Assembly (NCBI GenBank): GCA_964016885.1
Contig: OZ024740.1
Span: 128,030,001 to 128,094,000 of the forward strand
DNA: 64,000 nucleotides
Source: Eledone cirrhosa
Taxonomy: Eukaryota
Direction of reading: 5' to 3'
Shown piece after piece: positions 9,909 to 56,612 of this stretch. Position 1 is the stretch's first letter. Each line of letters starts with the position of its first letter. A program made the translations under genes and the position numbers. Below the pieces are notes generated by a model. The model was not told the DNA's origin. It made no database searches and saw nothing but the letters and a program-made list of their open reading frames with translations.

Positions 9909-10019
9909 GTATGTGTGTGTGGAGAGTGTATGGATTTATGTTCGTACATACATACATAAATACATACAAAGCAATCCGTAGGATATCTCTGAGAATACAC
10001 ATAAGTTACAATCATGTGG

Positions 10020-10580
10020 AGGACATATGCATATATAATATGAAAGAGTACTATTGGAACGTTTCAGTCAAATCCCAATAAAATCCGAACGGAAAAGAGG
10101 CGACATAGTAATATGGGACACAGAAAAGAAGGCAGGGACAATAATGGAAATTGGTTGCCCAGAAAATTAATGCTAAACTAATTCTGCAGATATTCCACAC
10201 TGACTATGCGTTTGGATTTGCACCTGTGATCACTGATGCTCTAGGATATGGGCTTCACAGAACCAGAAACGACATGGCTAGTTAGGCAGTTGCGAATACA
10301 GCACACTAATGGAATTGTAAAAATATGTATAACATTTCAAAAATAATTCAACATGCAAGAACTGCATATACATATGTATAGAAACAGAAATATGAGCACG
10401 TAGACACAAATAACTCAAACTATACAGATTTACACATGCAATAATCCCGATGCCTTTACACACATATAGATTGGCATACGCATTTCCCTTGTTGATATCA
10501 ACTATCTTCTAATGAAATAGACTTGTTTCTATGTCAGAAACCGGCTTGTTCTCTATTGGTGAAAAAACGTAATAAAATCT
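10020..10580 (+). mobile_element. Decayed 3' end of a restriction-like-endonuclease LINE (R4/Dong-like)
   Basis: Translates to EYYWNVSV..RGDIVIWDTEKK..IMEIGCP..DYAFGFAPVITDALGY, matching the PD-(D/E)xK-type C-terminal domain pattern. Confidence 0.55.
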
Positions 10581-10782
10581 TATTAAAATCAGAAGCACAT
10601 ATTCCTTCTTACTCTTTGCTTCAGAGTTCATATCCCACTGATCTCAACTTTGTCTTTCATCCTTTCAACGTATATAACAAACTACTCAAGACATAGTTCC
10701 TAAAGTTTTCACTCTACCACTCTACTTTCAAACGGCACAATCGTTTCGGGCCCCAAGAGTGGATGTATTTGTGCGGACACAT

Positions 10783-10846
<64 letters not shown>

Positions 10847-10880
10847 TTGTGTGTGTGTGTGTGTGTGTGAGTGTGTGTAA

Positions 10881-10962
<82 letters not shown>

Positions 10963-11106
10963 GTATATATGTATATGTATATATATATATATGTATGTAT
11001 ATATATATATATATATATATGTATATGTATATATATGTATATATATATATACATATATATATATGCATATACATATATATATATATATACATATATATAC
11101 ATATAC

Positions 11107-11143
<37 letters not shown>

Positions 11144-11281
11144 CATTGGAATAAATGCTCTGAAATAGCGATATATATGTGAATATAGACATAGAATATT
11201 CGAAAATATTCTGTATGTTTATAATAAACATTTTGAAGACCTAATCGCTATAGAATAGAATACGTCACGTATTACAATTAG

Positions 11282-11371
11282 ATTCTCGACAAAAGCAAGG
11301 GAAGTAAGTCTACGCGTTTCATTCTTGTTAGAATTCATCAGGACTACATATCCAGTGCTTTTATCGAGAAT
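11282..11371 (-). ncRNA. Minimal type I hammerhead; 7 minus-strand copies every 311 bp, the last at 13148-13237
   Basis: gtagtc-CTGATGA-attct(aaca)agaat-GAA-ACGCGT-A-gacttac, enclosed by a 16-bp stem ATTCTCGATAAAAGCA/TGCTTTTGTCGAGAAT with one U-G wobble. Confidence 0.92.
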
Positions 11372-13458
11372 GACACAGCTAGAGACTTATAGAATACTTA
11401 GCTGTGTACAGGAACTGGTTTGAAAGAGCGGTTGCCGGTCCGGCAGAAATTAGAAATTGGAATAAATGCTCTGAAATAGCGATATATATGTGAATATAGA
11501 CATAGAATATTCGAAAATATTCTGTATGTTTATAATAAACATTTTGAAGACCTAATCGCTATAGAATAGAATACGTCACGTATTACAATTAGATTCTCGA
11601 CAAAAGCAAGGGAAGTAAGTCTACGCGTTTCATTCTTGTTAGAATTCATCAGGACTACATATCCAGTGCTTTTATCGAGAATGACACAGCTAGAGACTTA
11701 TAGAATACTTAGCTGTGTACAGGAACTGGTTTGAAAGAGCGGTTGCCGGTCCGGCAGAAATTAGAAATTGGAATAAATGCTCTGAAATAGCGATATATAT
11801 GTGAATATAGACATAGAATATTCGAAAATATTCTGTATGTTTATAATAAACATTTTGAAGACCTAATCGCTATAGAATAGAATACGTCACGTATTACAAT
11901 TAGATTCTCGACAAAAGCAAGGGAAGTAAGTCTACGCGTTTCATTCTTGTTAGAATTCATCAGGACTACATATCCAGTGCTTTTATCGAGAATGACACAG
12001 CTAGAGACTTATAGAATACTTAGCTGTGTACAGGAACTGGTTTGAAAGAGCGGTTGCCGGTCCGGCAGAAATTAGAAATTGGAATAAATGCTCTGAAATA
12101 GCGATATATATGTGAATATAGACATAGAATATTCGAAAATATTCTGTATGTTTATAATAAACATTTTGAAGACCTAATCGCTATAGAATAGAATACGTCA
12201 CGTATTACAATTAGATTCTCGACAAAAGCAAGGGAAGTAAGTCTACGCGTTTCATTCTTGTTAGAATTCATCAGGACTACATATCCAGTGCTTTTATCGA
12301 GAATGACACAGCTAGAGACTTATAGAATACTTAGCTGTGTACAGGAACTGGTTTGAAAGAGCGGTTGCCGGTCCGGCAGAAATTAGAAATTGGAATAAAT
12401 GCTCTGAAATAGCGATATATATGTGAATATAGACATAGAATATTCGAAAATATTCTGTATGTTTATAATAAACATTTTGAAGACCTAATCGCTATAGAAT
12501 AGAATACGTCACGTATTACAATTAGATTCTCGACAAAAGCAAGGGAAGTAAGTCTACGCGTTTCATTCTTGTTAGAATTCATCAGGACTACATATCCAGT
12601 GCTTTTATCGAGAATGACACAGCTAGAGACTTATAGAATACTTAGCTGTGTACAGGAACTGGTTTGAAAGAGCGGTTGCCGGTCCGGCAGAAATTAGAAA
12701 TTGGAATAAATGCTCTGAAATAGCGATATATATGTGAATATAGACATAGAATATTCGAAAATATTCTGTATGTTTATAATAAACATTTTGAAGACCTAAT
12801 CGCTATAGAATAGAATACGTCACGTATTACAATTAGATTCTCGACAAAAGCAAGGGAAGTAAGTCTACGCGTTTCATTCTTGTTAGAATTCATCAGGACT
12901 ACATATCCAGTGCTTTTATCGAGAATGACACAGCTAGAGACTTATAGAATACTTAGCTGTGTACAGGAACTGGTTTGAAAGAGCGGTTGCCGGTCCGGCA
13001 GAAATTAGAAATTGGAATAAATGCTCTGAAATAGCGATATATATGTGAATATAGACATAGAATATTCGAAAATATTCTGTATGTTTATAATAAACATTTT
13101 GAAGACCTAATCGCTATAGAATAGAATACGTCACGTATTACAATTAGATTCTCGACAAAAGCAAGGGAAGTAAGTCTACGCGTTTCATTCTTGTTAGAAT
13201 TCATCAGGACTACATATCCAGTGCTTTTATCGAGAATCTAATTGTAATACGTGACGTATTCTATTCTATAGCGATTAGGTCTTCAAAATGTTTATTATAA
13301 ACATACAGAATATTTTCGAATATTCTATGTCTATATTCACATATATATCGCTATTTCAGAGCATTTATTCCAATTTCTAATTTCTGCCGGACCGGCAACC
13401 GCTCTTTCAAACCAGTTCCTGTACACAGCTAAGTATTCTATAAGTCTCTAGCTGTGTC

Positions 13459-13548
13459 ATTCTCGATAAAAGCACTGGATATGTAGTCCTGATGAATTCT
13501 AACAAGAATGAAACGCGTAGACTTACTTCCCTTGCTTTTGTCGAGAAT
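13459..13548 (+). ncRNA. Minimal type I hammerhead in the inverted arm (second plus-strand copy 13770-13859)
   Basis: CTGATGA at 13489-13495 and GAAAC at 13510-13514; predicted GUA cleavage after 13519 and after 13830. Confidence 0.92.
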
Positions 13549-14067
13549 CTAATTGTAATACGTGACGTATTCTATTCTATAGCGATTAGGTCTTCAAAAT
13601 GTTTATTATAAACATACAGAATATTTTCGAATATTCTATGTCTATATTCACATATATATCGCTATTTCAGAGCATTTATTCCAATTTCTAATTTCTGCCG
13701 GACCGGCAACCGCTCTTTCAAACCAGTTCCTGTACACAGCTAAGTATTCTATAAGTCTCTAGCTGTGTCATTCTCGATAAAAGCACTGGATATGTAGTCC
13801 TGATGAATTCTAACAAGAATGAAACGCGTAGACTTACTTCCCTTGCTTTTGTCGAGAATCTAATTGTAATACGTGACGTATTCTATTCTATAGCGATTAG
13901 GTCTTCAAAATGTTTATTATAAACATACAGAATATTTTCGAATATTCTATGTCTATATTCATATATATACATATATATACATATATATATATGAATATAT
14001 ATATATATATACATATCATATATTAATTTATACTAATTTGTATATATATATATATATATATACACTT

Positions 14068-14098
<31 letters not shown>

Positions 14099-14150
14099 TA
14101 TATATACATATGCATATATATATACATATGCATATATATATATATATATA

Positions 14151-15136
14151 CAAATTAGTATAAATTAATATATGATAAACACTAATACAATTATATAAGT
14201 GTTTGTATTGCAAATGACCAAGTTAGCTAGATTGAAAAATACTAATTAAATTAATACAGTTTGCCTGTCTCGATTTAAAATAATAAATCAATAAAAACAA
14301 ACCCATATTTACAATAGCCGTGATACCGGGACAAATTTAAATTTCAAAACCCAAACCTGTTCCGCAGACAAATTTAAATTTCAAAACCCAAATTCGTTTC
14401 GCAACGATAAGTGAAAAATGTGAAAAATTCCATTTCTGTGCTCTTCGGCAGGTATCCAGAAAATTGGTATGTTTCACCTCAAAATACTTAGGAGGACTGA
14501 TAAGCAAGTGTTGAACGCACATGGTTTTTCAGCGCCTAGCTAGTCCTATACTCGTGCTGCTAGAAATAACAGCCGTTTTTATGGGACTAAAATGTAGCTC
14601 AACAAAAGGAGCCGTTAATACTATATATAGAGTTATAAACTCAAACAGTCTTTTACAATTAAATAGCTCAAAGAAAGAGGTATTTCTGAGCCGTGAAATA
14701 CAAATTAGTATAAATTAATATATGATAAACACTAATACAATTATATAAGTGTTTGTATTGCAAATGACCAAGTTAGCTAGATTGAAAAATACTAATTAAA
14801 TTAATACAGTTTGCCTGTCTCGATTTAAAATAATAAATCAATAAAAACAAACCCATATTGGCAATAGCCGTGATACCTGGACAAATTTAAATTTCAAAAC
14901 CGTTTAAATTTCAAAATCGTTGCGAAACGAATTTGGGTTTTGAAATTTAAATTTGTCCAGGTATCACGGCTATTGGCAATATGGGTTTGTTTTTATCGAT
15001 TTATTATTTTAAATCGAAACAGGCAAACTGTATTAATTTAATTAGTATTTTTCAATCTAGCTAACTTGGTCATTTGCAATACAAACACTTATATAATTGT
15101 ATTAGTGTTTATCATATATTAATTTATACTAATTTG
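14151..15136 (-). mobile_element. Non-coding ~550-bp tandem unit (1.4 copies plus an inverted segment) carrying a hammerhead
   Basis: caaattagtataaattaat at 14151 and 14701; inverted copy at 14917-15136; HHR at 14322-14456; family fragments at 32186-32260 and 62388-62865. Confidence 0.75.
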
Positions 15137-15250
15137 AGTTCAAATCCCGCCGAGGTTGACTTTGCCTTTCATCCTTACGGGGTCGATAAAATAAAGTACC
15201 AGTAATGCACTGGGTAATTGCTGGCCTTGTGCCTAAAGTAGAAACAATTA
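15135..15250 (+). mobile_element. 5'-truncated tRNA-derived SINE
   Basis: gagttcaaatcccgccgaggttgactttgcc..gcctaaagtagaaac. Confidence 0.85.
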
Positions 15251-15357
15251 ATTTATACTAATTTGTATATATATATATATATGTGTATATGTATATATAT
15301 ATGCATATGTATATATATATATGTATATGTGTGTGTGTGTGTGTAAGTGTATATATG

Positions 15358-15476
<119 letters not shown>

Positions 15477-15488
15477 TAGCTAGAGCTA

Positions 15489-18048
15489 AACTTAGAAATA
15501 TTATAGAACAGTATAGCAAGAAACATAATAGAATGAAGGCCCAGCAACTGGGAGAAAAATCTGCAAATGGCTTGCATAAGCTCATGCAGCGCTCACGTAA
15601 TGGAGAGATAGCATGCTTTCCAACAGCCAAGCCTGGCAGAATGTCGGTTAACAGTCTGCCAAACTACATCCAGGCAATGCAACCCCACATCACTAACACA
15701 CGAGAAGTAACACCACAAGAGCATGAGGATAGAGAAAAAGCCATCAATGCCCATATGATGATGTGGACAAATATAATGCAGCCCAACAAAAGGACGGCCA
15801 ACAACTTCCAGGCCTGGAACAATGACGTGCCAGCGTTGTATGGGCTTCGAAAAGACCATAAAACGAGCAGTGACCCTGTCAAAGGACCATCAACACGGCC
15901 AGTCTGTGGAGCTAATATTGCTAGTAACTACAGACTGTCCTACTTCCTCTCCAGGATCATACGCCCGATCATTGAAATGTCCCCAGATGTATGTGACAGC
16001 ACGTAGGACCTCCTCAGCGAAATCGGCGAGAGTAACCGATCTAGGGACCTAATAAACTGCATAATAGGTAGTATGGATGTTGTGTCGCTGTATCTATCTA
16101 TTGACGTAGATTTTGCTGTGGAGAAATGCGTAGAAATGTTCAGTGAGATCAATGTTGAATTCCGTGGGATTGATACCAGTGAGCTGGGACTCCTACTTAA
16201 ACTTACCTATATTAATAATTATCTAGACACATATGACCTTAGCAACCTGTGCCCTACAAGACCAGCAAGAGGCAGACCACCAACCATTACCTCAATGGCC
16301 AAGAAAACCCACACAGATAGCTGGAACGGGTGGACCAGAGCCATTCGGACCCCCTAAAACTAAAGAAAATTATTGCACATGCGGTGGGGGCCAGAATAAA
16401 ATTAACCCTTAAGGAACATATGTTCAAATTTAATGGAAAAACATATGCCCAAGACGAGGGAGCAGCAATTGGTGTTAGCATTGCAGGCGACATAGCTAAC
16501 CTATTCATGGTATGGTGGGACAGTAGACTTAAACTTAAACTTAAAGAACAATTAGAAGACCCTTTAACCCTGATAATTTACTCCCGCTACGTTGATGATA
16601 TAAATATCGTAGTTAAAACACCCCCACTAGAGAACAGTCAGGAATTAGAGAAAAACACAATGGAAAGCAACCAGAAAATAGCTAACTCCATCCACCACAG
16701 TATTAGAGTTACAATAGACTACCCAAGCAAACACCCCAACCATCGATTACCTGTACTAGACACAGAGCTCTGGTTAGATACCATTAATAACAAAAAATAA
16801 ATCCTCCATTCCCATTATGCCAAACCCATGACTTCCAAATATTTGATCCACCGAAACTCAGCTATTTCGGACTATACCAATATCAACATACTGATTGCGG
16901 ATTTGGTACGGGTGATGAGAAACGTGTCCCGCATGTGCAACCCCGAAGAACTAGAGAGACACATACAACACTTCATCCACCGTATGCAGTTCTCTGGTTA
17001 CAATCAGAGAGTTAAAATCAGAGTGTATAGAGGAGTCAGAACCAAATGGGAAAAAATGGTAAATAATGACACAAATGGGACCTGCCTCTTGTATAGGAGC
17101 AAATTTTGGAATAGAATAGAAAGAACTGGGAATAAGGCTAATAGAATAAACTCATGGTATGATAGCAATAAATACCAGAGTGTAATGTTCATCGATACAC
17201 TCCCTAGAGGTGAATTAGCTTACCAATTTAGAAGGGCTCTAGATAAACATAAACTCAATATTAAGATAGTAGAAAGACCAGGTACCTCCATAAAAACACT
17301 TATTAGGAAGACATACCCTTTTCAAAGACCTCCCTGTACAGATAAGAAATGTATAATCTATAAATTAAGCCCCCATATTAACTGGAAAACTAGAAATGTA
17401 GTATAGAGCATAAGATGTACTGAGGACAATGTAAAGATAAGAATATAGTCTACATAGGTGAGACAGCTCGTAGTATAGGGGAACGGATAAATGAACACTG
17501 GCGAGACCTTCAAGATAGTAAAGAATCATTTGTACTCTACCAACATGCTAAAATAGAACATAAGGGTAAATTAGAGAACATAGAAATAAAAATAGAATAT
17601 ACACACAGAAAAGACGCAATGTTTAGACAAATCATAGAGTCAATAAACATAAATGTATTACAACCAAAATTAAATAGAAAACATGAGTGGAACAGCAACA
17701 TCACAGCTTACAATTAAGGACAAAATGAAAACACACACGCACATAGAACAAACAACCAACCAGTAACATGTAAATAAACAAATAAATAAGCACACTAAGC
17801 ACACAACACACACAAAAATAAGATGGGGTATGACAGAACAAAGGAGTGGCACAAAAAAACAAAGAAAAGAATCCCAGTCACTGAAGAGGTCACAGAATGT
17901 GTGATGAAAGAACTTTGACAATATATAAACAACCATCCGGTTGTGGAACCAACCAACCAACCGGAAATTTATAAATTCCTAAATTAATAAATTTATTGTA
18001 ATAAATTGAAGTGAAAGCTACAATTGCGGCTAAACAAATTCAGAAACG

Positions 18049-21333: not shown

Positions 21334-24140
21334 ATGCCCAACCTGAGATCCTTTCTCCACCAACTCCACAATCGCCTCAAACTTTTCCTCACCCCCCTCC
21401 TTCCACGCTGCTACCCCCCCTCCGCCCTTCAACTCTCCTACTTTCTCTTCGCCAAAACCCGGCACTCCAGCCACATCCATTTCCTCAGCCACTGCCTCCG
21501 CCTCCACCTTATCCCCCTCGGCTTCCGTCTACACTTCCACCCCTCCCCGCTGCTTCCCCCTCCACGCAACATATCCTCACCCGATCCTCACGCCTTCTGA
21601 TGCGCAACTCCATCCGCGCCTCCCGTTCCACCCTCCGCCTAACTTACCACCAACTGACCCCCACCCTCCTCCGCCTTTACTTCACCTGCCACCCCCTCCT
21701 CGCCAAAGCCATCCTCTCCTTCATCCACAACCTCAACCACAACCTCTTCTCGTTCCTCAGCTCCACCAAAGCCCGCAAGCTACACTCACTCCTCTCCCCC
21801 CCCCCCATTCACCACCACCCGCCCATCCCCATACGCCCACCACTCTCCATCTCTCCCCCGACCCACACCCCTACCCAATCTCCACCCTCCACATCACCCC
21901 TCACCACACCCTCCCTTCCCTCCCCAAACACCCAAACCCCACCCCTTGTTGTCACCATACCCCCTGACCTCCCCCTCTCCGCACCTGAGCGCTCACGCCT
22001 TAGTAGAGGCCTTCGCTTCATACCCCACACTCCGCTCAGCGACGGGTTCCGCACCCGAACGGAAGTCGAGCGATTCGTGCGACGCACTAAGCTACAGGCA
22101 CATTTCAGCCGAACGCCACCGGCTCCGGACGCCCCAGACCCGTTTCTCGCCCTGGGCCGACGACCATCTTCTTGGACGCCGGCCCCAGGGCAATTTAGCA
22201 CCCTGGACGCCTTCGTCGATGCCAGCCGTAGCGCAGTAAATCGTTTCGACTTCCGCCACCGTTCCAAACGGCACAACATCTCACGGGGCGAACTCCTCGC
22301 TCTCCGCTCCCTCCGTAGCCGAGATGATATCGTCATCAAACCGGCGGACAAGGGAGGCGCCGTGGTGGTATGGCGCGCGGACCTCTACACGGCCGAAGCC
22401 CTCAGGCAGCTCTGTAACCCCCTCTTTTACCGCCCTCTACACTCCGAAATCACCCTCCTCTAACAACAACAAGTCTCCTCCATCATCAAAGACCTTATCG
22501 CCTCCTCCCTCCTCCCCCCACCGCTTCCCACCTCATCGTCCGCATCCCCCGCACTCCCACCATCTACTTCCTCCCCAAACTCCACAAACCCGACAACCCC
22601 GGCCGCCCCATCGTCTCCGCTTGCAACTGCCCCACCGAACTCATCTCCGCCTTTCTCGACTCCCTCCTCGCCCCCCTTGTCACCACCCTCCCCTCCCACA
22701 TCTCCGACACCAACCACGCCCTGCGCCTTTTCGACTCCTTCACCTACCTACCCGGCCCTCAGCCATTCCTCTTCACCCTAGACATCAAGTCCCTCTATAC
22801 CGTCATCCCCCACGCCGACGGCCTTCGCGCCCTCAAACACTACCTCGACCTTCGCCCCTCCCCCATTCCCTCCACCCCCACCCTCATTCGCCTCGCCGAG
22901 CTGGTCCTCACCCTAAATTGTTTCTCCTTCTCGGGTGAGTTTTACCAACAGGTCACGGGGGTAGCCATGGGTACAAGAATGGGCCCGAACTATGCCAACC
23001 TATTTGTTTGCCATGTTGAGGCCCAAATTTTTGCCCAGTACACCGGCCCCACGCCCGAACTGTACGGTCGTTACATCGACGACTGTATCGGAGCCACGAC
23101 CCTCACCCGAGAACAGCTCGACTCCTTTTTCTCCTTCTTCTGCTCCTTCCACCCCTACCGCCACTTCACCACCTCTATCTCCACCACCCACGTCCACTTC
23201 TTAGACATCTCCGTCGCCTTCGACCCCTCCCACCACTCCCTCGTCACCTCCGCCTTCTTCAAACCCACCGACTCCCACTCTTACCTCGACTTCACCTCTT
23301 CCCACCCCACACACACTAAACACTCTATTCCCTACTCCCAACTCCTCAGGATCCGCCGCCTCTGTAGCCGAGATGCTGACTTCGAGTCCCAGGCCCTTTC
23401 CCAATTCAGCCATTTCATCCGCAGAGCTTACCCCCCTCTCTCGTCCACACCGCTCTCACCCGCGCCCGTGCTGTCCACCGCTCCACCACCCTCACCCCAC
23501 GCCACCGCACACCCACCCACCGTCTCCCCTTCCCCATCACCTACCACCCCTCCACCTTACCCCTCCACCGCACCATCCGCCGCCTCTTCCGACGCCTCCA
23601 GTCCGACCCCTCCACCTCCCACATCTTCCCAACCCCACCACTCCCCTCCGTCAAACGCGCACGCAATCTCCGCACCCTCCTCGTCCACAGCTCCCTACCC
23701 CCCAACCCACGCTCCGGTTCCCCCCCCGGTTCCTTCCCCTGTTCTAGGCCCCAATGCAACACCTGTCCCTACATCACCAACACCACCACCTTCCAGGGTC
23801 CCAACGGCCACTCTTTCTCGGTCCGGCATGCCTTCCGCTGCACCTCCTCCAACCTAGTCTACGGACTTCGTTGCACGGAGTGCAGCGCGACTTATGTCGG
23901 ACAGACGGGACGTCGCCTGGCGGACCGAGTCACGGAGCACCTCCGGGATATTCGTCTCGGGGGCAGTTCCCCCATCGCCCGCCACTTTGGTGGCCCTGGA
24001 CACTCCGCACGTCATCTCACAGTCTGTGGCCTACTCCAGTGCCACGGAACACCCGCCCATCGCCTTACGGTCGAACAACGCAGTATCTTCATCTTACAGA
24101 CCCACACTACCCCGGCCTGAACTCCCCACCCTTATTCCTT
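21334..24140 (+). pseudogene. PLE-B RT/GIY-YIG polyprotein, disrupted by stops and frameshifts
   Basis: ORF-track pieces 21334-21600, 21600-22463 and 22967-23857, plus alternative frames that carry the RT and endonuclease motifs. Confidence 0.88.
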
Positions 24141-42693: not shown

Positions 42694-42829
<136 letters not shown>

Positions 42830-43659
42830 AAAGAATAGAGGTGTAACACACAAGTTATTATATATTGGTAAACGGAATAGAAAATGCTGACGAATTGTTC
42901 ACAGTTGAAAAATAGTTTAATTAGGAATAAAAGAGTATTAGTAATTGTATGGGTTAGTATTCAGTTGTGGTTTTAAGTTTTTAAGTTTTTACCGGTTGCG
43001 CATTTCTAAATGCTTTTCAAAAATAATTTAGAGATAGAGTGTCCGTGTTGTTTGCTCTGATCTGATTAGTTTTGGGAATTCTACCTCTTTTTATGTTAAA
43101 AAAGTGGCTCCAGCGCTAGTTTGGTGTTGCAAAAATTCTTGTGGTCAGAACAATTTTGATTGGTCGGTAGAGGTCATGTGAATGTAAAAAATTGATTTTG
43201 CGCCAAGACTGTTTTTATGTTAAAAAAGTGGCTCCAGCGCTACTTGGTGTTTGCAAAAATTCTTGTGGTCAAAACAAATTTGATTGGTCGGTAGAGGTCA
43301 TGTGAATAAAAAATTGATTTTGCGCCAAGACTTAGAAATGACTCTTTCACAACAAATATGTGTGTGTGTGTGTGTGTGTGTGTAGTAGTAGTAAGGTGTT
43401 CGATGTTGTGATAATGGTTAGCAGTCAAATGGCTATTAAGATAAGTGTGTGTGTGTGTGTGTGTATGTATGTGTGTGTGTGTGTGTGTATAGCAGAGTAA
43501 TTCGTGGTAGCAGGGATGGTCAGTAGGAATGTGTCTGTAAGCAGTGGGGGGTATTTTAGAAGGTCAAAAGATATTTTTCAGCTTTGTCTTATACGGAGAA
43601 GTGTGTGTGTGTGTGTGTATAAGTCTCTTTGTATGTTAATGTACGCGTGTGTATGTGTG

Positions 43660-43721
<62 letters not shown>

Positions 43722-43891
43722 AATGTGTGTGTGTGTGTGTGTGTGGGTGGACCAGTATTTTTTTCCCCCTGGTAAAATGGTGTACATTATTCGATTTTTT
43801 CAGTAAAATCGGTTTTCTTAATAGAACATCAAAAATCTTAACAATAAAAGGTGTGAAATGATATTCACTATATATATATATATACATATAT

Positions 43892-43963
<72 letters not shown>

Positions 43964-44090
43964 CACACATATATTTTTTGTGTTGCACCATAGAGCATGT
44001 GTGTTTACGTATGTCATTGTGTTTATATGTGGGTAGAGATGTGTGCTGATGTAGGTATATATGTTGACGTGTGTATGTTGTGGGTTCGTC

Positions 44091-46406
44091 TTAGGGAGAA
44101 GTGTTTAGATGGGGTCCGTACTTGTTGATGAAGTAAGATTCCTCGCTGATGCGCTGGGTGTGGGTGGCATTATCTTTAAATTTGTAGAGGGGAAAGATTC
44201 TGAAGTTGGGATGATTTTGGGCGGCACAGGTATCAATGTGTTCACTCAGTGGTATTTTCCTGTATTCCCGTATTTTAATTTGGGATCTATGGACAGTCAT
44301 GCGTTGGCGGAGGCTGGTTTTGGTCTGGCCTATGTATTGTTCTCGACAACCTGAGCAAGTTAATACATATATTAGATTTTCCGATGCACATGTGAAATTG
44401 TGTTTTACTATAAAACGTTGTCCTTCTTTGAAATAAAATTCCGAATCCTCTATTAGATAGATGCAAATGCCACAGTTTTGTCTATCGCATTTTTTTACCC
44501 TGGGTTTCGTTGTTGTGGTTGGCAGTACTTTGGCATGTGTTAGGATGTTTTTCATTGACTTGGATTGTCTTTTTCTCTTTATGATATCGTGTGTTCGTAG
44601 GATTTGGTTCATTCTGTGGTCCCTTTTCAACACAGGGATGTTCTGGAGGATGGTGTCAAAGGCCTCATTGTTGAGGGGGTTGTGTGTGGAGATGTATGGA
44701 AGAGCTTTTAGTTTCGGTTGATTTACTTTAGGGTGTCTAAGGTCTTGGGTACTGAGTTTGAGGGCACGTTGGATTCCATTGACAATTAGTGATGCAGGGC
44801 AGTCCCTGCCTATGAGTGTGTCCTTTAGTTCTTGTAGCCGTAAGTAGCAGGTGTTTTTATTGGAGACTATAGTACAGATTCTCTTGGCTAAGTTGTAGGG
44901 AATATTCATTTTAACGTGTCTAGGGTGGCAAGAGTTGAAAGGGAGATATTGCTTGGAGTCTGTGGGCTTGTAGTATATGTCTGCTTCTATTTTTTTGTTA
45001 TGGATCTTAATGAGGATGTCGAGGAAGGGGAGTTGTTGATGGCTGTATTCCATCGTGAAGTTAATATTCGTGTTGAGCCCATTTATATGGGTGTGAAATT
45101 CTTTAAGTTTTTCGATGTTTTCGTGCCAAAGGATGAAGCAGTCATCTAGATATCGCTTCCAGTTCCTTTCAATGTGTAAGTGGAGGGTGTTTCCGAATTT
45201 GTTTAGGACTTTAGTGTAGAGAGTGATTTCCAGGTATCACATGACTAGGTTGGCATAAGTGGGGCTGTTTTCGTTCCCATAGCGGTCCCAGATTTTTGCC
45301 TCTAGGGTTTGTTATTGAAAACGAAGTAATTGTTCTCCAAGATAAATTTGAGTCCCTCTATCACGATTTTTTTTGATGCGTTGTGGGAGTTCATTGTGGA
45401 AATTATCCAGCCAGAATTGGATAGCTTCTATTCCTAGGTTGTGGGGGCTGTTGGAGTATAGGTTGACTACATCGAACGTCACTAGTAGGGTTTGTTCAGA
45501 AAGTGGCATATTAGGGAGGTGATTGAGCATATCTAGGTCGTCCCTTATATAGTTTTTGATGTGTTTGAGAAAGGGTTTGAGAAGGGTATCAATGAAGTTG
45601 CTAAGGAGGTGGGTTTCGCAAGCGGGTCCTGCTATTATAGGTGTTAATTTGAGATCATTGGGTGAGGGGACATTGATGACTATGTCTGTGGCTTCCTTGC
45701 ATGCCTTACTTATTGATTCGCTTTTATGTACTTTAGGGATACCGTAGAAAGGGCTGGATTTACTTGTGAAGTCTGTGATGAAGCTGAATTCCTTGTTAGT
45801 GAGTCCTTCTTTGCATTGGTTGATTAGAGTTTTTAGGTTTCTCATAATTTTCTGTTGATTGTAGTTTTCAGCCTTTTCGTAGTATGTTTCGTTTTCCAAA
45901 GTGGAGAGCGCTAAGTTGATATAGAATTCTGTCTCCATTAGGACTACTGTACTCCCTTTATCAGCCTCTTTAATTGTAATAGTTCTGTCGGTTTTTAATC
46001 TATTTAATTCTTCCCATTCTTTCTTGTTGAGGTTTGGCTTGTGTTTTTCTCTGTGCAAGTGTTGGTAAGGGAAGTTTGTGATGTGTTCACAGAATTCGTC
46101 CAGGATTTTATTTCTACCTTTTGAAGGGGTGTAATTGCTTCTATTTCTGGCTAATGATTCATCCTCACTGTATTGGTCTAATAGTTGTTCACTAAATCGT
46201 AACTTTCTACAGAAGTCTGTGATGTCTTCCTTCATTTCGTAGTAGTTAGGACGTAGTGGGGTCGGTGTGAATTTAAGACCTTTGGAGAGTAAGTTGATAA
46301 GGTTGGGTGTTGGTTCTGCACTAGTAAGATTGATAATTTTTATTACTATCGGTTTCTCCTCCCTGTCTTGTGTTATTTTCTTTGCCTGTATCTGTGTGCT
46401 ATGTCT
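44091..46406 (-). pseudogene. PLE-C ORF2 RT-GIY-YIG (disrupted)
   Basis: ORFs 45312-46235 and 44091-45053; the frame is open upstream to the slippery site at 46406-46412. Confidence 0.9.
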
Positions 46407-47682
46407 AAAAAATGGTTGGGGTAGATGGGTTGTCTGCTGATGTTAAGTGGTCTCCTGTGTTTGTTATATTCCTTGTTGTTGTAAAATGTGTTTCGGGTTG
46501 GTGGTTGTAGATTGAATGGGGTCTTCCTGTACTGCGAGTATGGGTGTGTGTTTCTATGTGCCATGTTGTATTGTGGTGTTATAAGTGGCCTTCGTTGTTG
46601 GTTGTATCGTGTGGTGTGGGTTTGTTGTGTATTGTGGAAGCGAGAGTTGAGAAAATGGTAAATACCTTGCTGTCCCCTTGAAGCGGGGAAGTTGTTACAT
46701 CTATCATGGTGGTGGTGTCTTTTCCCTATGTTTGACGATGAGGCATCTGCGTAGTAGTTGAGTGATTTGGTATGGTGTCTCCTTGAAGGGGGAAAGTTGT
46801 AAATGTCATTCTGGGGGAGATGATTTCTTGGATTTGTGTTCCTTCTTATGGTAGCGAGGTTGGGAAGTTCATCTTCGGTGTGGTGCTTCCTTCTTCGTTT
46901 GTTAGCGGCTTGGGGGTTTGAGAAGTTGTTGTGCGGTTCAGTTATGGGTTTTCCTATTTTTATTAACGGGTTATTGGAGGTGTAATCCGTTTGAAAAGTC
47001 GATTCATAGTGTAGGAACCAAGCGGCACTTTTTTCCCAGCGTTGAAGGGATTTCACTTCTTCTCTGTTGCAGTCCTCTTTCCATAATTTGGAGATCTTCT
47101 CTACTTTGGGGCCTTCAGTTTTGTTGTTGATTTCCAGGAGGATCTCTTCATCGATGGTTTTGATTTTTTCCTCATTTGCCTGGGCCCTCAGTTTAAGAAG
47201 TTCAATTTCTGTCTTCATTTTTTCCTATGCCATTCTTTCCCTAAGGTCTCTTTGAGGTTCGGGTTCATTTGGAATGGGCTTTATTTGTAGTTTACGTGGG
47301 AGAGTTAGAGGGGTTGAGTTAAGCCATTTTTCATATATCTCTGCTTTGTTGTGATTTTGTATCATCTTCCAGAATGAGAACTTTCTGTCTCTGTGGGATT
47401 TGTTCCATTTTGGAATTGTTCGAATTTTCATTTTGTATGAATCAATCTCACATGGTTCTCGTTGGTTTTTCCTGGGTTGGTAGTAGTGAACATAGTTTGG
47501 ATAGTATCGCAAAGGTTTTGGAGTTTGTCGCCGATTTCGGAGGGTTTGTATCCGGTGGCGGTTTCCTTATTTGTGGAGTCAAGTTTGTCGACCAGCAAAG
47601 ATAGGTTGGTGTTGATTTTCTTGAGTTCCTGTAGGATCTCTTCATTTGTGTTGATGAGTGTTGTATCCGTTTTTGTTGGCAT
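46373..47682 (-). pseudogene. PLE-C ORF1 (coiled-coil region plus N/H/R/Q-rich tail)
   Basis: Pieces 47428-47736, 47225-47512 and 46373-47218; the stop at 47225 is read through in copy 2. Confidence 0.7.
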
Positions 47683-48117
47683 TTTCTGTATCTCGTGTGA
47701 GGATATGATAGTTAAAAGAATAGAGGTGTAACACACAAGTTATTATATATTGGTAAACGGAATAGAAAATGCTGACAAATTGTTCACAGTTGAAAAATGG
47801 TTTAATTAGGAATAAAAGAGTATTAGTAATTGTATGGGTTAGTATTCAGTTGTGGTTTTAAGTTTGTAAGTTCTTTAGCCACTTTTTTAACATAAAAAGA
47901 GGTAGAATTCCCAAAACTAATCAGATCAGAGCAAACAACACGGACACTCTATCTCAAAATTATTTTTGAAAAGCATTTAGAAATGCGCAACCGGTAAAAA
48001 CTTAAAAACTTAAAACCACAACTGAATACTAACCCATACAATTACTAGTACTCTTTTATTCCTAATTAAACCATTTTTCAACTGTGAACAATTTGTCAGC
48101 ATTTTCTATTCCGTTTA

Positions 48118-48157
<40 letters not shown>

Positions 48158-48309
48158 TAACAGTTTAAGCGAAGAATCGTTGCTTTCACCCTTAACGTGA
48201 TCTTCTGAAACTAAAAAAATCAATCTGTGAACGCAGAAGTAAATATTTCGAAAAACGTTACACACTATATACATATACACACACATATATACATATACAT
48301 ATTTACACA

Positions 48310-48552
48310 CACACAGATAGTGTCATAATGTCGTAATGCAGACAGGCAGACATACAGACAGATATTATAAGGGCGCGACATCATAGCTATCTAATGCGGT
48401 CCCTAGGGCATTGAAACGTTAAAATATGTTTTGCTCAAAATACTCACACCACCATACGTATTGCATGTGTAAAGTTTGAAAAACATCGGTTGGGTGGTTG
48501 TCGAGTGTTAGGGAGTCAGACAGACAGATATTCTCTGTTTTAGATATATAGA
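48310..48552 (-). mobile_element. Helitron-like 5' end fragment
   Basis: Plus strand ends cagacagatattctctgttttagatatataga|t, resembling the 5' terminus of the Helitron at 28270. Confidence 0.45.
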
Positions 48553-48584
48553 TAAAATGTGGAAACTCTGCTTCGTAGAATCCA

Positions 48585-48679
48585 GACGTATCTGAGGACC
48601 TTGCGATTTCTGAGTTAGGTTAGATCATTACATTGATCGTGCCTCGACCTGGTCGCCCGAGAATCGATTGTAATATGTC
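48585..48679 (+). ncRNA. Degenerate hammerhead
   Basis: gacgtat-CTGAGGA-..-GAGAATCGATTG-TA-atatgtc with a 7-bp helix I; the GAAAC segment is damaged; outer stem cgtagaatc/gattctacg. Confidence 0.5.
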
Positions 48680-48881
48680 CAATAAATTGTATTCGCCGCA
48701 ACACTGATTCTACGTTTGGGTGATTTGTAGTTACCACATTTCCGGTTTGTATTTATTTTCTTGATTTTTTCTTAAATTGAGACAAGCAAACCCAATTGTC
48801 TATAGTTAGTATTCTATTCACCTTAGCGAATCTGATCCCTTACGATTTGAACTCATATATGTATATATCTGCGTTCGTTTT

Positions 48882-48952
<71 letters not shown>

Positions 48953-48957
<5 letters not shown>

Positions 48958-49039
48958 GAGCTTCTACAGGACTAGAACTGTTTCATTCGTGAGAAATCAT
49001 CACGAATGAAACAGTTCTAGTCCTGTAGAAGCTCTTCTA
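48953..49039. repeat. Perfect 40-bp-arm palindrome built from a hammerhead 3' half
   Basis: Arms 48953-48992 and 49000-49039 with a 7-nt spacer; minus strand reads TGATGA-tttctcacgaat-GAAAC-agttcta-GTC. Confidence 0.85.
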
Positions 49040-49149
49040 CATTAAAACTTTTATACTCTGCTATGTAATGAGTACCTTACTTACTGTGGTTACCTCCGAT
49101 GCATCCCGGAATAACTCATATAATATATATATATATATATATAGATTCG

Positions 49150-51847
49150 AACTTAGAAATATTATAGAACAGTATAGCAAGAAGCATAATAGAATGGAGG
49201 CCCAGCAACTGGGAGAAAAATCTGCAAATGGCTTGCGTAAGCTCATGCAGCGCTCGCGTAATGGAGAGATAGCATGCTTTCCAACAGACAAGTCTGGCAG
49301 AATCTCGGTTGACAGCCTGCCAAACTACATCCATGCAATGCAACCCCACATCACTAACACAAGAGAGGTAACACCACAGGAGCATGAGGATAGAGAAAAA
49401 GCCCTCAATGCCCATATGGTGATGTGGACGAATATAATGCAGCCCAACAAAAGGACTGCCAACAACTTCCAGGCCTGGAACAATGACGTGCCGGCGTTGT
49501 ATGGGCTTCGAAAAGACCATAAAACAGGCAGTGACCCTTCGCGGGACCACCAACACGGCCAGTCTGTGGAGCTAACATTGCTAGTAACTACAGACTGTCC
49601 TACTTCCTCTCCCTGATCATACGCCCCATCATTGAAATATCCTCAGATGTATGTGACAGCACGGAGGACCTCCTCAGCAGAATCGGCGAGAGTAACCGAT
49701 CTAGGGACCTAACAAACTGCATAATAGGTAGTATGGATGTTGTGTCCCTGTATCCATCTATTGACGTGGATTTTGCTGTGAAGAAATGCGTAGAAATGAT
49801 CAGTGAGAGCAATGTTGAGTTCCGTGGGATTGATACCAGTGAGCTGGGACTCCTACTTAAACTTACCTATAGTAATAATTACCTAGACACATATGACCTT
49901 AGCAACCTGTGCCCTACAAGACCAGCAAGAGGCAGACCACCTACCATTACCTCAATGGCCAAGAAAACCCACACAGATAGATGGAACGGGTGGACCAGAG
50001 CCATACGGACACCCTAAAACCACGATGAACTGAAGAAAATGATTGCACATGCGGTAGGGGCAAGCATAAAACTAACCCCTAAGGAACATATGTTCAAATT
50101 TAATGGAAAAACATATGCCCAAAAGGAAAGAGCAGCCATTGGTGTTAGCATTGCAGGCGATATAGCTAACTTATTCATGGTATGGTGGGACAGTAGACTT
50201 AAACTTAAACTTAAAGAACAATTAGAAGACCCCTTAACCCTGATAATGTACTCCCGCTACGTTGATGATATAAACATCGTAGTTAAGACACCCCCACTAG
50301 AGAACAGTCAGGAACTAGAGAAAAACACAATGGAAAGCATCCAGCAAATAGCTAACTCCATCCACCAGAGCATTAGAGTTACTATAGACTACCCAAGTAA
50401 ACACCCCAACCATCGATTACCTGTACTAGACACAGAGCTCTGGTTAGATACCATTAATGACAAAAAACAAATCCTCCATTCCCATTATGCCAAACCCATG
50501 ACTTCCAAACATCTGATCCACCGAAACTCGGCCGTTTCGGACCATAACAAAATCAACATACTGATTGCGGATTTGGTACAGGTGATGAGAAACGTGTCCC
50601 GCATGTGCAACCCCGAAGAACTAGAGAGACACATACAACACTTCATCCACCGTATGCAGTTCTCTGGCTACAATCAGAGAGATACAATCAGAGTGTATAG
50701 AGGAGCCAGAACCAAATGGGAAAAAATGGTAAATAATGACATAAATGGGACCTGCCCCTTGTACAAGAGCAAATTTTGGAATAGAATAGAAAGAACTAGG
50801 AACAAGGCTAATAGAATAAACTCATGGTATGATAGCAATAAATACCAGAGTGTAATGTTCATCGATACAACCCCTAGAGGTGAATTAGCTTACAAATTTA
50901 GAAGGGCCCTAGATAAACATAAACTCAATATTAAGATAGTAGAAAGACCAGGTACCTCCATAAAAACACTTATTAGCAAGACATACCCTTTTCAAAGACA
51001 CTCATGTATAGATAAGAAACGTATAACCTGTTAAATAAGCCCCCATATTAACTGTAAAACTAGAAATGTAGTGTATAGCATAAGATGTACTGAAGGACAA
51101 TGTAGAGACAAAAATATAGTGTACATAGGTGAGACAGCTCGTAGTATAGGGGAACGGATAAATGAACACTGGCGAGACTTTCAAGATAGTAAAGAATCAT
51201 CTGTACTCTACCAACATGCTAAAATAGAACACAAGGGTAAATTAGAGAACATAGAAATAAAAATAGAATCTACACACAGAAAAGACGCAATGTTTAGACA
51301 AATCACAGAGGCAATAATCATAAAAGAATTACAACCAAAATTAAATAGAAAATATGAGTGGAACAGCAACATCACAACTTACAATTAAGGACAAAATGAA
51401 TACACACACACACATAGAACAAACAACCAACCAGTAACATGTAAATAAACAAATAAATAAATGAACATAAACACACACAGACACCCGGATGTGGCGCATG
51501 CACAGACTGAGCATACAACACACACACAGAAACAAAATAGCGTAGGACAGAACAAAGGAGAGGCACAAAAACAAAGAAAGAAATCCCCAGTCACTGAAGA
51601 GGTCACAGAGTGTGTGACGGAAGAACTATGACAATATATAAACAAATTTCTGGTTGTGGAACCAACCAACCAACCAACCATAAATTTATAAATTTATAAA
51701 TTTATTACAAATTTAATATAATAAATTGAAGTGAAAGCACCTGGTGCGTGTGTTTCTTATTGGCAACATGACCCTCCCAAAGTATAACAATATCGGTTTC
51801 AACACACGATTTCAGATAAAGAATCTTGCTAAATAAATTCAGAAACG

Positions 51848-51850
<3 letters not shown>
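49150..51850 (+). mobile_element. PLE family A, copy 2
   Basis: Colinear with 15489-18051; PTDKSG, MDVVSLYPSI, RYVDD and YSIRCTEGQC..YIGETARSIGERINEH. Confidence 0.93.
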
Positions 51851-51897
<47 letters not shown>

Positions 51898-52276
51898 AGG
51901 TTTGACGGACCCAGCATATTTATCAATGCCAATACAGGTTGTATCTCAGCGCACTCAATGGGCAATGTAAGATGCATTACCAGAGTATACACATAGTTAT
52001 TTGCCTCAACACAACACACGTAAAACGGGTGCCTTTAAGGTTCCCGGCCTCGAGTTTCTGCAGCACTAATGCAGCAGTAAGGTGCACTGCACCATCTGTC
52101 TACATATATTATGCAACACTGCACAATAGGCTTATGCGGCTTCATCAGCGGGTATCGCCTTATCAATAACAAAGTGATCGTCATAATCCAAACACCAGCC
52201 CGTGCCTGACATGTCTGTTTGTGACAACCGACAAGGTAAAGCGATTAACTGGCAACCGATAGGACTCTATCTCTCA

Positions 52277-52338
<62 letters not shown>

Positions 52339-52341
<3 letters not shown>

Positions 52342-55300
52342 TAGACGGAATAGAAATAGCTGACAAATTGTTCATAGTTGAAAAATGGTTTAATTAGGAA
52401 TAAAAGAGTATTAGTGATTGTATGGGTTAGTATTCAGTTGTGGTTTTAAGTTTTTAAGTTTCTACCGGTTGCGCATTTCTAAATGCTTTTCAAAAATAAT
52501 TTTGAGATAGAGTGTCCGTGTTGTTTGCTCTGATCTGATTAGTTTTGGGAATTCTACCGGTTTTTATGTTAAAAAAGTGGCTCCAGCGTTACTTTGGTGT
52601 TGCAAAAATTATTGTGGTCAAAACAATTTTGATTGGTCGGTAGAGGTCATGTGAATGTAAACAATTGATTTTGCGCCAAGACTGTTTTTATGTTAAAAAA
52701 GTGGCTCCAGCGCTATTTGGTGTTTGCAAACTTTCAGAGACAGAACGTTCTCATTCTGAAAGATGATACAAAATCACAACAAAGCAGAGATATATGAAAA
52801 ATGGCTTCACTCAACCCCTCTAACTCTCCCCCGTAAACTACAAATAAAGTCCATTCCAAATGAACCCGAACCTCAAAGACACATTAGGGAAAGAATGGCA
52901 TTGGAAAAAATGAAGACAGAAATTGAACTTCTTAAACTGAGGGCCCAGACAAATGAGGAAAAAATCAAAACCATCGATGAAGAGATCCTCCTGGAAATCA
53001 ACAACAAAACTGAAGGCCCCAAGGTAGAGAAGATCTCCAAATTATGGAAAGAGGACTTCAACAGAGAAGAAGTGAAATCCCTTCAACGCTGGGAAAAAAG
53101 TGCCGCTTGGTTCCTACACTATGAATCGACTTTTCAAACGGATTACACCTCCAATAACCCGTTAATAAAAATAGGAAAACCCATAACTGAACCGCACAAC
53201 AACTTCTCAAACCCCCAAGCCTCTAACAAACGAAGAAGGAAGCACCACACCGAAGATGAACTTCCCAACCTCGCTACCATAAGAAGGAACACAAACCCAA
53301 GAAATCATCTCCCCCAGAATGACATTTACAACTTTCCCCCTTCAAGGAGACACCATACCAAATCACTCAACTACTACGCGGATGCCTCATCGTCAAACAT
53401 AGGGAAATGATACCACTGCCATGATAGATGTAACAACTTCCCCGCTTCAAGGGGACAGCAAGGTAATTACCATTTTCTCAACTCTCGCTTCCACAATACA
53501 CAACAAACCCACACCACAGGATACAACCAACAACGTAGGCCACTTATAACACCACAATACAACATGGCACATAGAAACACACACCCATACTCGCAGTACA
53601 GGAACACCCCATCCAATCCACAACCACCAACACGAACCACATTTTACAACAACAAGGAATATAACAAACACAGGAGACCACTTAACATCAGCAGACAACC
53701 CCTCTACCCCAACCATTTTTTAGACACAGCACACAGATACAGGCAAACAAAATAACACAAGATAGGGAGGAGAAACCGATAGTAATAAACATTATCAATC
53801 TTACTAGTGCAGAACCAACACCCAACCTTATCAACTTACTCTCCAAACGTCTTAATTTCACACCGACCCCACTACGTCCTAACTACTACGAAATGAAGGA
53901 AGACATCACAGACTTCTGTAGAAAGTTACGACCAGTACAATGAGGATGAATCATTAGCCAGAAATAGAAGCAATTACACCCCTTCAAAAGGTAGAAATAA
54001 AATCCTGGACGAATTCTGTGAACACATCACAAACTTCCCTTACCAACACTTGCACAGAGAAAAACACAAGCCAAACCTCAACAAGAAAGAATGGGAAGAA
54101 TTAAATAGATTAAAAACCGACAGAACCATTACAATTAAAGAGGCTGATAAAGGGAGTACAGTAGTCCTAATGGAGACAGAATTCTATATCAACTTAGCGC
54201 TCTCCACTTTGGAAAACGAAACATACTACGAAAAGGCTGAACACTACAATCAACAGAAAATTATGAGAAACCTAAAAACTCTAATCAACCAATACAAAGA
54301 AGGACTCACTAACAAGGAATTCAGCTTCATCACAGACTTCACAAGTAAATCCAGCCTCTTCTACGGTATCCCTAAAGTACATAAAAGCGAATCAATAAGT
54401 AAGGCATGCAAGGAAGCCACAGACATACTCATCAATGTCCCCTCACCCAATGATCTCAAATTAAGACCTATAATAGCAGGGCCCGCTTGCGAAACGCACC
54501 GTCTTAGCAACTTCATTGATACCCTTCTCAAACCCTTCCTCAAACACATCAAAAGCTATATAAGGGACGACCTAGATATGCTCAATCACCTCCCTAATAT
54601 GCCACTTTCTGAACAAACCATACTAGTGACGTTCGATGTAGTCAACCTATACTCCAACATCCCCCACAACCTAGGAATAGAAGCTATCCAATTCTGGCTG
54701 GATAATTTCCACAATGAACTCCCACAACGCATCAAAAAAGAATTCGTGATAGAGCGACTGAAATTTATCTTGGAGAACAATTACTTCGTTTTCAATAACA
54801 AACCCTACAGGCAGAAATCTGGGACCGCTATGGGAACGAAAACAGCCCCCACTTATGCCAACCTAGTCATGGGATACCTGGAAATCACCCTCTACACTAA
54901 AGTCCTAAACAAATTTGGAAACACCCTCCACTTACACATTGAAAGGAACTGGAAGCGATATCTAGATGACTGCTTCATCCTTTGGCACGAAAACATCGAA
55001 AAACCTAAAGAATTTCACACCCTTATAAATGGGCTCAACACGAATATTAACTTCACGATGGAATACAGCCATCAACAACTCCCCTTCCTCGACATCCTCA
55101 TTAAGATCCATAACAAAAAAATAGAAACAGACATATACTACAAGCCCACAGACTCCAAGCAATATCTTCCCTTCAACTCTTGCCACCCTAGACGCGTTAA
55201 AATTAATATTCCTCACAACTTAGCCAAGAGAATCTGTACTATAGTCTCCAATAAAAACATCTGCTACTTACGGCTACAAGAACTAAAGGACACACTCATA

Positions 55301-56164
55301 GGCAGGGACTACCCTGCATCACTAATTGACAATGGAATCCAACGTGCCCTAAAACTCAGTACACAGGACCTTAGACACCCTAAAGTAAATCAACCGAAAC
55401 TAAAAGCTCTTCCATAAATCTCCACACACAACCCTCTCAACAATGAGGCATTTGACACCATCCTCCAGAACATCCCTGTGTTGAAAAAAGACCATAGAAT
55501 GAACCAAATCCTACGAACACACGATATCATAAAGAGAAAAAGACAATCCAAGTCAATGAAAAACATCCTAACACATGCCAAAGTACTGCCAACCACAACA
55601 ACGAAACCCAGGGTAAAAGAATGCGATAGACCCAACTGTGGCATTTGCATCAACCTAATAGAGGGTTCGGAATTCTATTTCAAAGATGGACAACGTTTTA
55701 TAGTAAAACACAATTTCACATGTGCATCGGAAAATCTAATATATGTATTAACTGGCTCAGGTTGTCGGGAACAATACATAGGCCAGACCAAAACCAGCCT
55801 CCGCCAACGCATGACTGTCCATAGATCCCAAATTAAAATACGGGAATACAGGAAAATACCACTGAGTGAACACATTGATACCCGTGGCGCCCAAAATCAT
55901 CCCAACTTCAGAATCTTTCCCCTCTACAAATTTAAAGATAATGCCACCCACACACAGCGCATCAGCAAGGAATCTTACTTCATTAACAAATACGGACCCC
56001 GTCTAAACACTTCTCCCTAAGATGAACCCACAACATACACACGTTGACATACATACCTACATCAGCACACATCTCCACCCACATATAAACACAATGACAT
56101 ACGTAAACACACATGCTCTATGGTGCAACACAGAAAAATATATGTGTATATATATGTATATATA

Positions 56165-56195
<31 letters not shown>

Positions 56196-56555
56196 ATATA
56201 TAGTGAATATATGTATGTGTATATATATGTAGTGAATATCATTTCGCACCTTCTATTGTTAAGATTTTTGATGTTCTATTAAGAGAACCGATTTTACTGA
56301 AAAAATCGAATAATGTACACCATTTTACCAGGGGGAAAAAAATACTGGTCCCCCCCCACACACACACATATATACACACACACATACACACGCGTACATT
56401 AACATTCAAAGAGACTTATACACACACACACACACACACACGCACTTCTCCGTATTAGACAAAAGTTGAAAAATATCTTTTGACATGCTAAAATACCCCC
56501 CATTGCTTTCAGACACATTCTTACTGACCATCCTTGCTACCACGAATTACTCTGC

Positions 56556-56612
<57 letters not shown>

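Follow-up and report, generated by a model that had tools for sequence, protein, structure and literature searches.

Anatomy of the 311-bp repeat

The window, that is, the whole stretch of 64,000 nucleotides analysed here from Eledone cirrhosa (assembly GCA_964016885.1, contig OZ024740.1, positions 128,030,001 to 128,094,000), contains a 311-bp unit that is repeated over positions 11145-13961 (2817 bp) and carries nine hammerhead cores by exact mapping (Table 1). A preliminary description had read this region as a single array of about nine identical units. The perfect homogeneity held, but the single array did not: exact mapping resolved two head-to-head arms that are mutual reverse complements, with seven cores on the - strand and two on the + strand. 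Tandem Repeats Finder also reported two 311-bp arrays, at 11145-13237 (6.7 copies) and 13222-13969 (2.4 copies). Alignment of the units to the monomer gave 2093 matches over the 2093 positions of the left arm and no mismatch over 13230-13961 in the right arm, the sole two differences in the right-hand stretch (13229 and 13962) being located immediately outside that interval.

Table 1. Features of the two-armed repeat in the window; unit positions are counted from window position 13520, the first base after the predicted cut.
Feature	Position	Strand	Remarks
(TA)n target, left flank	10803..11144	.	
Left arm	11145..13237	-	6.73 identical units; outer end at unit position 166 ("long" end)
35-nt "tail", unit positions 132-166	11145..11179	-	At left outer end, absent from right outer end
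Minus-strand hammerhead cores	11311, 11622, 11933, 12244, 12555, 12866, 13177	-	
Inversion junction	13230..13237	.	8-nt exact overlap of the arms; sequence from the unit's own long stem
Right arm	13230..13961	+	2.35 units; outer end at unit position 131 ("short" end)
16-bp stem closing the hammerhead domain	13459..13548	+	13459-13474 with 13533-13548; 8 of 16 pairs compensated in sister family
Type I hammerhead	13483..13526	+	Helix I, CUGAUGA at 13489, helix II, GAAA, palindromic helix III; predicted cut after 13519
8-bp hairpin, UUCG loop	13618..13637	+	Just upstream of short priming site
Second + hammerhead core	13800	+	
(TA)n target, right flank	13962..14010	.	

Both arms run out into (TA)n, in keeping with the flanks described earlier, and the short end directly precedes the TA run of the unit itself (133-140). 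The overlap at the inversion junction extends to 16 nt if one mismatch is allowed (13222-13237). The absence of an ORF, also part of the preliminary description, was confirmed to the extent that no frame of at least 150 aa lies inside the repeat in the window; only (TA)n-driven frames enter its first 100 bp. G or C make up 108 of the 311 bases of the unit (<50%).

The hammerhead motif is composed of helix I, CUGAUGA, a 5-bp helix II, GAAA, the palindromic ACGCGU, and GUA. The CUGAUGA/GAAA core, the GUA site ending at 13519, the palindromic helix III, and the stems that had been named from the letters were all present. Support from the Rfam hammerhead models was weak, in that a 221-nt search returned Hammerhead_HH9 at 17 bits, below the gathering score of 52 (E 0.097), and a wider Rfam scan of window positions 10000-15500 gave no hammerhead match at E<=1. 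Rfam miRNA matches in that interval were discarded as simple-repeat noise. The unit is highly self-paired (fold z-score -4.4, with 0 of 100 shuffles equally stable), and a predicted fold of two copies pairs helix III between them (-15.7 vs 2 x -3.9 kcal/mol). Both strands folded better than their shuffles (z -4.36 vs -4.27), and folding energy is uninformative as to the functional strand.

A dispersed family with paired ends and a sister family

Copies were dispersed throughout the genome, as the preliminary description had anticipated. Specifically, an exact 31-nt core variant was present in 3,924 copies in the 3.0-Gb genome, together with 1,015 exact junctions between the long end and TA and 1,173 such junctions of the short end, against 7 in a reversed control. 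When the pattern for the long end was relaxed, it had 809 forward-strand matches, the reverse count being inflated by overlapping matches. We estimate that insertions in (TA)n number about 1,600.

The architecture of these insertions was examined in a long-end sample of 100 regions of contig C1, chosen solely for a listed long end, which held 101 insertions, or 94 once seven that were cut off or touched N had been excluded. A - arm followed by a + arm, that is, a divergent arrangement, was found in 89 of the 94 complete insertions and a convergent one in none, while five were scored as single-armed, among them L100, in which a 19-nt second arm fell under the script cut-off. Every two-armed insertion (89 of 89) paired one long end (160-175) with one short end (126-141), the modes being 166 and 131, so that a 30-40-bp tail was present at one end only. 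Since pairs of two short ends would be invisible in this sample, 20 loci were taken by a short end without a listed long end. The 18 readable loci comprised 11 two-armed insertions, one with an 11-nt second arm, and six that were single-armed; each partner end was long (166-173), and no short-short pair was seen among the 18. Either site can start an arm alone, and two-armed insertions use one of each.

With the addition of 14 loci from a first set ranked by similarity, which includes the window, 103 loci were available. Median arms were 4.3 and 3.2 units, with maxima of 18.7 and 14.6, and arm lengths were weakly correlated (rho 0.29, p 0.003). The inner ends were spread round the unit and did not cluster (Rayleigh p 0.93 and 0.08). 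Among 102 junctions, 76 had no added bases and 26 had some; an overlap of at least 2 nt was present in 54% of the former vs 18% expected. Target-site duplications of animal retrozymes, when present, exceed 4 bp. Candidate duplications here, in the form of informative 12-64-bp duplicated TA blocks, were seen at five of the 103 loci vs 0.3 in shuffled pairs, but the flanks are themselves periodic.

Several other element families also end in TA tracts, and the ends of different TA-targeting elements accumulate in common (TA)n tracts (flanks of L033, L049, L056, L078, L147, and L225). Adjoining the retrozyme is a TA-flanked repeat with a period of ~550 bp (window 14148-15260, 62388-62456, and 62614-62865), which has direct and inverted copies and a SINE-like piece inside, and no canonical hammerhead in 14148-14700. 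A further TA-flanked family with tandem or inverted copies (window 58588-58832, 62911-63100, and 63139-63829, with a relative in L078) has a hammerhead-like motif near 58640 with a palindromic helix III. Elsewhere, hammerheads with a palindromic helix III were noted in a tandem repeat that has a GUC site and a period of 466 bp (L046:343-1275; L044:2185), as well as in another family, whose helix I is 8 bp long (L049, L065, and L085; L049 and L085 show it on either strand).

An older sister family of ~325 nt was found in L117, with 2,354 candidates that are ~95% identical. It is colinear with the 311-nt unit, has the same two ends, and is frequently two-armed. In 25 of 30 loci the core is UUGAUAA (of the others, one had a different variant and four were unmatched; two pairs of loci overlap), which amounts to a U3-A8 swap of the C3-G8 pair, a replacement reported for Schistosoma PLE hammerheads (PMC4209133). 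Over 11 + 11 natural copies, 42 hand-specified pairs were 98.3% paired and 18 had changed on both sides, against at most three in slid controls, although this covariation is in effect one two-family comparison, made on a structure drawn from these same sequences. Compensation extends to the catalytic pair (C3-G8/U3-A8), each of helices I-III, the 16-bp stem that closes the domain, and the hairpin next to the short site; in the sister family, two pairs of that hairpin are compensated and its loop is GCAA. The idea of a "ruler", by which distance and not sequence would set the long end, was dropped, given that the long ends of both families share one alignment column. The sister families (L117:3200-4050; L158-L187; L149:8693-9094) comprise the ~325-nt form with its U3-A8 core and a relative with the canonical C3-G8 core, and have the same two ends.

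Haplotypes, template, and the probable connection to PLEs

Across 104 loci, 828 full units resolved into 38 haplotypes. Both arms were of one haplotype in 68 of the 72 loci with full units in each arm, vs a mean of 6.6 and a maximum of 16 in 10,000 permutations, and three of the four disagreeing loci rest on a single unit per arm. At 13 of the agreeing loci the haplotype was found at no other sampled locus. Divergence within loci was 0.047%, and 38 of the 84 loci with at least three units were perfectly uniform. Moreover, in seven loci the short-end arm has at least 30 nt missing from the long-end arm, and in five the long-end arm has at least 80 nt missing from the short-end arm, so neither arm is always the template of the other. 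Taken with the shared haplotypes, this result speaks for twin priming on a single RNA circle. A linear multimer is the less favoured template, because variants fixed across a whole insertion would need a one-unit bottleneck.

Strict copying of a single template is not the whole story, since, of 105 variants that are not fixed, 11 reappear in several units (e.g., in L094, L061, L039, and L065), mostly in arms of at least 10 units, and since the outermost unit of both arms of L108 carries a three-site haplotype unlike the interior. In L094, a linked two-site variant is present in units 1, 6, 14, and 16 of 21, and in L077 and L082 the state at position 277 changes along an arm. Template switching or later conversion may explain the L108 and L094 patterns.

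Substitutions fixed throughout an insertion were asymmetric. Leaving out the variants that define the main lineages (including A296G and T128C), 32 insertion-wide events remained, 17 of them A>G vs two T>C on the hammerhead strand (binomial p 1e-4). Changes confined to single units were symmetric (11 A>G vs 15 T>C; Fisher p 0.002 vs insertion-wide). No insertion-wide change fell in the hammerhead core, except at variable position 7. A21G, A277G, and A260G were found on five, four, and three backgrounds, respectively, all of them in predicted stems and after a U, with the first-set loci having been ranked by likeness to the window, which has G21. A-to-I editing of the template would, given ADAR preferences, produce this pattern, and the excess possibly reflects such RNA editing; G-U tolerance and template switching are alternative sources, though there was only one C>T event. 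We regard as tentative, with the odds somewhat against it, the fuller proposal that in every insertion two PLE subunits, tied to one start site each, copied a single RNA circle simultaneously, such that A-to-I edits on the circle would enter every unit of the new germline insertion and host RNA editing would be the main source of new variants.

In published PLE insertions, one arm is inverted and 5'-truncated, and a tail of 30-40 bp is present at a single end (PMC8557442, PMC3846280). Working in vitro with a purified PLE protein that is predicted to dimerise, Frangieh et al. 2024 (PMC11167929) showed that it nicks AT-rich DNA on both strands and extends both, and that reverse transcription by the PAc PLE begins at two sites inside the RNA, on either side of the tail. 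The ends of the retrozyme fit this two-site priming if the hammerhead strand is the template, because its 3' ends then face the flanks. The preliminary view that the hammerhead strand is the RNA strand is supported, as is mobilisation by a PLE, for which the paired ends, the tail, and the TA target all speak; we consider the latter highly probable. The ends attributed to priming (131-140 and about 166) lie far from the predicted ribozyme cut site. The resemblance to EN+ PLEs (PMC8557442, PMC3846280, and PMC11167929) extends to the inverted 5'-truncated arm, the one-end tail, the AT-rich target, and RNA-internal priming downstream of the hammerhead cut. Unlike those elements, the retrozyme has no ORF, both of its arms are multi-unit, and no similarity to a PLE terminal repeat was found in the flanks surveyed. 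It also uses one site per arm in vivo (89 of 89), whereas the in vitro start sites of the PAc PLE were alike on both strands (PMC11167929).

The genome holds a very abundant element with RT and GIY-YIG domains (18,223 candidates, many with 784-aa open frames, e.g., L151:4186-6537), eight best-matching copies of which differ by 0.28%, and whose CX4CxxC linker is Neptune-type by the definition in PMC8557442. In at least four of ten loci (L148, L151, L154, and L157) both ends of the intact element face outward into (TA)n, and the two are of different types and lie 39 nt apart. A relaxed scan of the 3' region of the intact 784-aa PLE found no hammerhead. Similarity between the retrozyme and any PLE terminal repeat was likewise not found in 516 kb of masked flanks that included 10 intact-PLE loci. 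The retrozyme itself contains no long ORF, and hence no RT + GIY-YIG frame, and is not an autonomous PLE.

An element at L154:8243-8698 was not taken as the parent, because at 19 loci no PLE ORF belonging to it was seen within 1.5 kb and because its tail is ~70 nt long. The family to which it belongs (window 48950-49115; L154:7827-8698; L189-L207) has a canonical type I hammerhead with a helix II like that of the retrozyme, and is apparently non-coding, TA-flanked, and two-armed, with 2,535 candidates that are 93-96% identical. The window also contains a decayed two-armed copy of the 784-aa PLE (42704-57424), divergent like the retrozyme, in which the - arm (43445-47393) and the inverted + arm (52735-56602) share 94% identity and enclose further, nested elements. 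Decayed PLE-like RT/endonuclease frames were also located at window positions 15453-18018, 49118-51738, 21900-24100, and 60510-62240; the first two of these terminate in (TA)n and share 91% identity, and among these frames only 22418-23854 had a Pfam match, which was below the cut-off.

Finally, 20 sequencing runs from 18 coded organisms contain 66-94% of the unit's words, four of the 24 listed runs having been examined in the comparison. No RNA run is among those listed with the unit, which carries no information on expression. In runs X4 and X5 the unit was present as one 340-nt self-overlapping contig with a depth of 26-34 and neither loose ends nor flanks, vs a summed depth of about 4e5 and TA loose ends in run X1. 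Horizontal transfer across the 18 coded organisms was not accepted on account of this difference. Trace carry-over is the simplest reading of the X4 and X5 unit, and a likely one, although these contigs carry one clean 310-nt haplotype that is a minority in this genome (6 of 104 loci), which carry-over does not fully explain; that the circle spread between species is much less likely, and we give it little credence. Raw reads of X23 gave 0 matches in 1,938 million letters, which we rate as no test, X23 having the same organism label and study as X8, one of the runs that contain the unit's words, and a different sample. Metagenome contigs gave 0 matches to a 24-nt pattern.

Mode of insertion, alternatives, and significance

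The repeat in the window is, with little doubt, a very young animal non-LTR retrozyme. This identity was proposed in the preliminary description and is upheld by the 311-bp unit with 7 + 2 consecutive cores, its non-coding and dispersed nature, its GC content, and its strong self-pairing; the very recent insertion proposed there is also supported. In Cervera & de la Pena 2020 (PMC7229834) and Li, Clavereau & Pollet 2026 (10.64898/2026.07.22.740005), animal non-LTR retrozymes are tandem, non-coding units of 150-450 bp with GC <50% and a type I hammerhead per unit, and share with the present family the self-paired unit, the weak palindromic helix III, and co-occurrence with PLEs. Most copies have a U-U at the foot of helix II, as do the axolotl motifs. 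In the text consulted, those retrozymes are described as head-to-tail tandems, and RNA forms are shown for them; two arms, paired ends at fixed sites, the tail, a TA target, and A>G changes throughout an insertion form no part of that description. Our literature search, largely confined to openly accessible journals, found no report on cephalopod retrozymes or on two-armed retrozyme insertions.

The single rolling reverse transcription first suggested for the locus was wrong in form, having overlooked the inversion, and the anatomy needs two internal priming events. Our preferred reading, to which we assign a probability of roughly 0.7, is a retrozyme inserted in (TA)n as two divergent arms by a PLE that primes from both nicked strands on one small RNA circle. 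By analogy with known retrozymes, the arrays would be transcribed, cut by the hammerhead, probably as a helix III dimer, and ligated into circles of 310/311 nt. As PLE biochemistry suggests, an RT-endonuclease would then bind the RNA near positions 95-170 and nick both strands of a (TA)n tract. One arm ends at about 166 and the other at 131-140, where one DNA strand each would have primed, and each cDNA may have gone round the same template a variable number of times before the cDNA ends were joined, presumably through the short microhomology or few added bases that are seen at the junctions. Later unequal exchange probably reshuffled some of the longest arms.

Inversions of a comparable kind arise in LINE-1 twin priming, in which two target-primed cDNAs on one RNA yield an internal inversion joined by microhomology and the first cDNA stops near the second priming site. 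The retrozyme differs in that its inner ends are unclustered (14 of 102 within 128-175, with 15.7 expected) and in having no poly(A) end.

The one-circle model is weakened by several observations, namely that only one of nine Xenopus retrozyme dimers was cleaved in vitro (10.64898/2026.07.22.740005), that a PLE in vitro used uncleaved RNA, dispensed with its hammerhead for insertion, and had start sites that did not differ between strands (PMC11167929), and, in our own data, by the correlation of arm lengths, the recurrent non-fixed variants, and the missing similarity to a PLE terminal repeat. Some of these points lend themselves to the same PLE twin-site priming on an uncleaved linear multimer transcribed from an existing array, with the hammerhead and the circle being incidental. 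In PMC11167929 the substrate was indeed mainly uncleaved RNA and ribozyme mutants inserted normally; moreover, one homogeneous source array could give arms that share a haplotype, and the scattered L094 variants could come from a mixed one. Set against this are the 38 haplotypes, each fixed throughout an insertion, which need a one-unit bottleneck for every new variant, the arms that reach at least 18.7 units when copying of linear RNA can only shorten arrays, and the conservation of the ribozyme core and closing stem, with compensation, between the two families. We consider a linear template unlikely, if clearly the strongest of the competing readings.

A single priming event followed by fold-back or self-priming, a route proposed for head-to-head PLE repeats (PMC3846280), would have the second arm copied from the first cDNA, and thereby explains the shared haplotypes directly. 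The weak correlation of arm lengths, the mirror symmetry of L108, and the use of the unit's own stem at the junctions of the window locus and L053 agree with it as well. However, the arms can differ by more than one unit in either direction, the short-end arm being the longer in 32 of 103 loci and the long-end arm in 46, each arm can contain sequence that the other lacks (the seven and five loci above), and single-arm insertions begin at either site. Furthermore, hairpin-type junctions were not enriched (9 of 102 vs 6.9 expected), and non-fixed variants were common to both arms in only two loci. Fold-back is thus largely refuted as the general route, and improbable, but could still explain a minority of loci. 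Even less probable is that the repeat spread as a satellite at the DNA level, by unequal crossing-over or extrachromosomal DNA circles, or is an assembly artefact. Block duplications do occur in the longest arms, palindromes and tandem repeats are hard to assemble, and the junction in the window is taken from the assembly, but neither source would account for dispersal over the ~1,600 (TA)n sites, with fixed, strand-polarised ends and a different junction at nearly every locus, or for the strand-asymmetric A>G excess. TA loose ends near both sites in an independent read assembly (run X1) also speak against it, and the pairing of ends against spread by DNA only.

PLEs have been proposed to mobilise retrozymes in PMC7229834 and 10.64898/2026.07.22.740005, which leave open the enzyme responsible, the mechanism, and the use of the circle as template, and the completion of tandem and inverted PLE insertions is stated to be open in PMC8557442 and PMC11167929. 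These two gaps meet in the present family, in which about 1,600 nearly identical insertions of a 311-nt template bear the two-site footprint of a PLE. Both the retrozyme and the PLE footprint are known ingredients and their combination had been predicted; this is not a new kind of element. For the in vitro PLE assay already established, the family offers a minimal substrate whose start sites are predicted exactly, and intact candidate PLE enzymes occur in the same genome.
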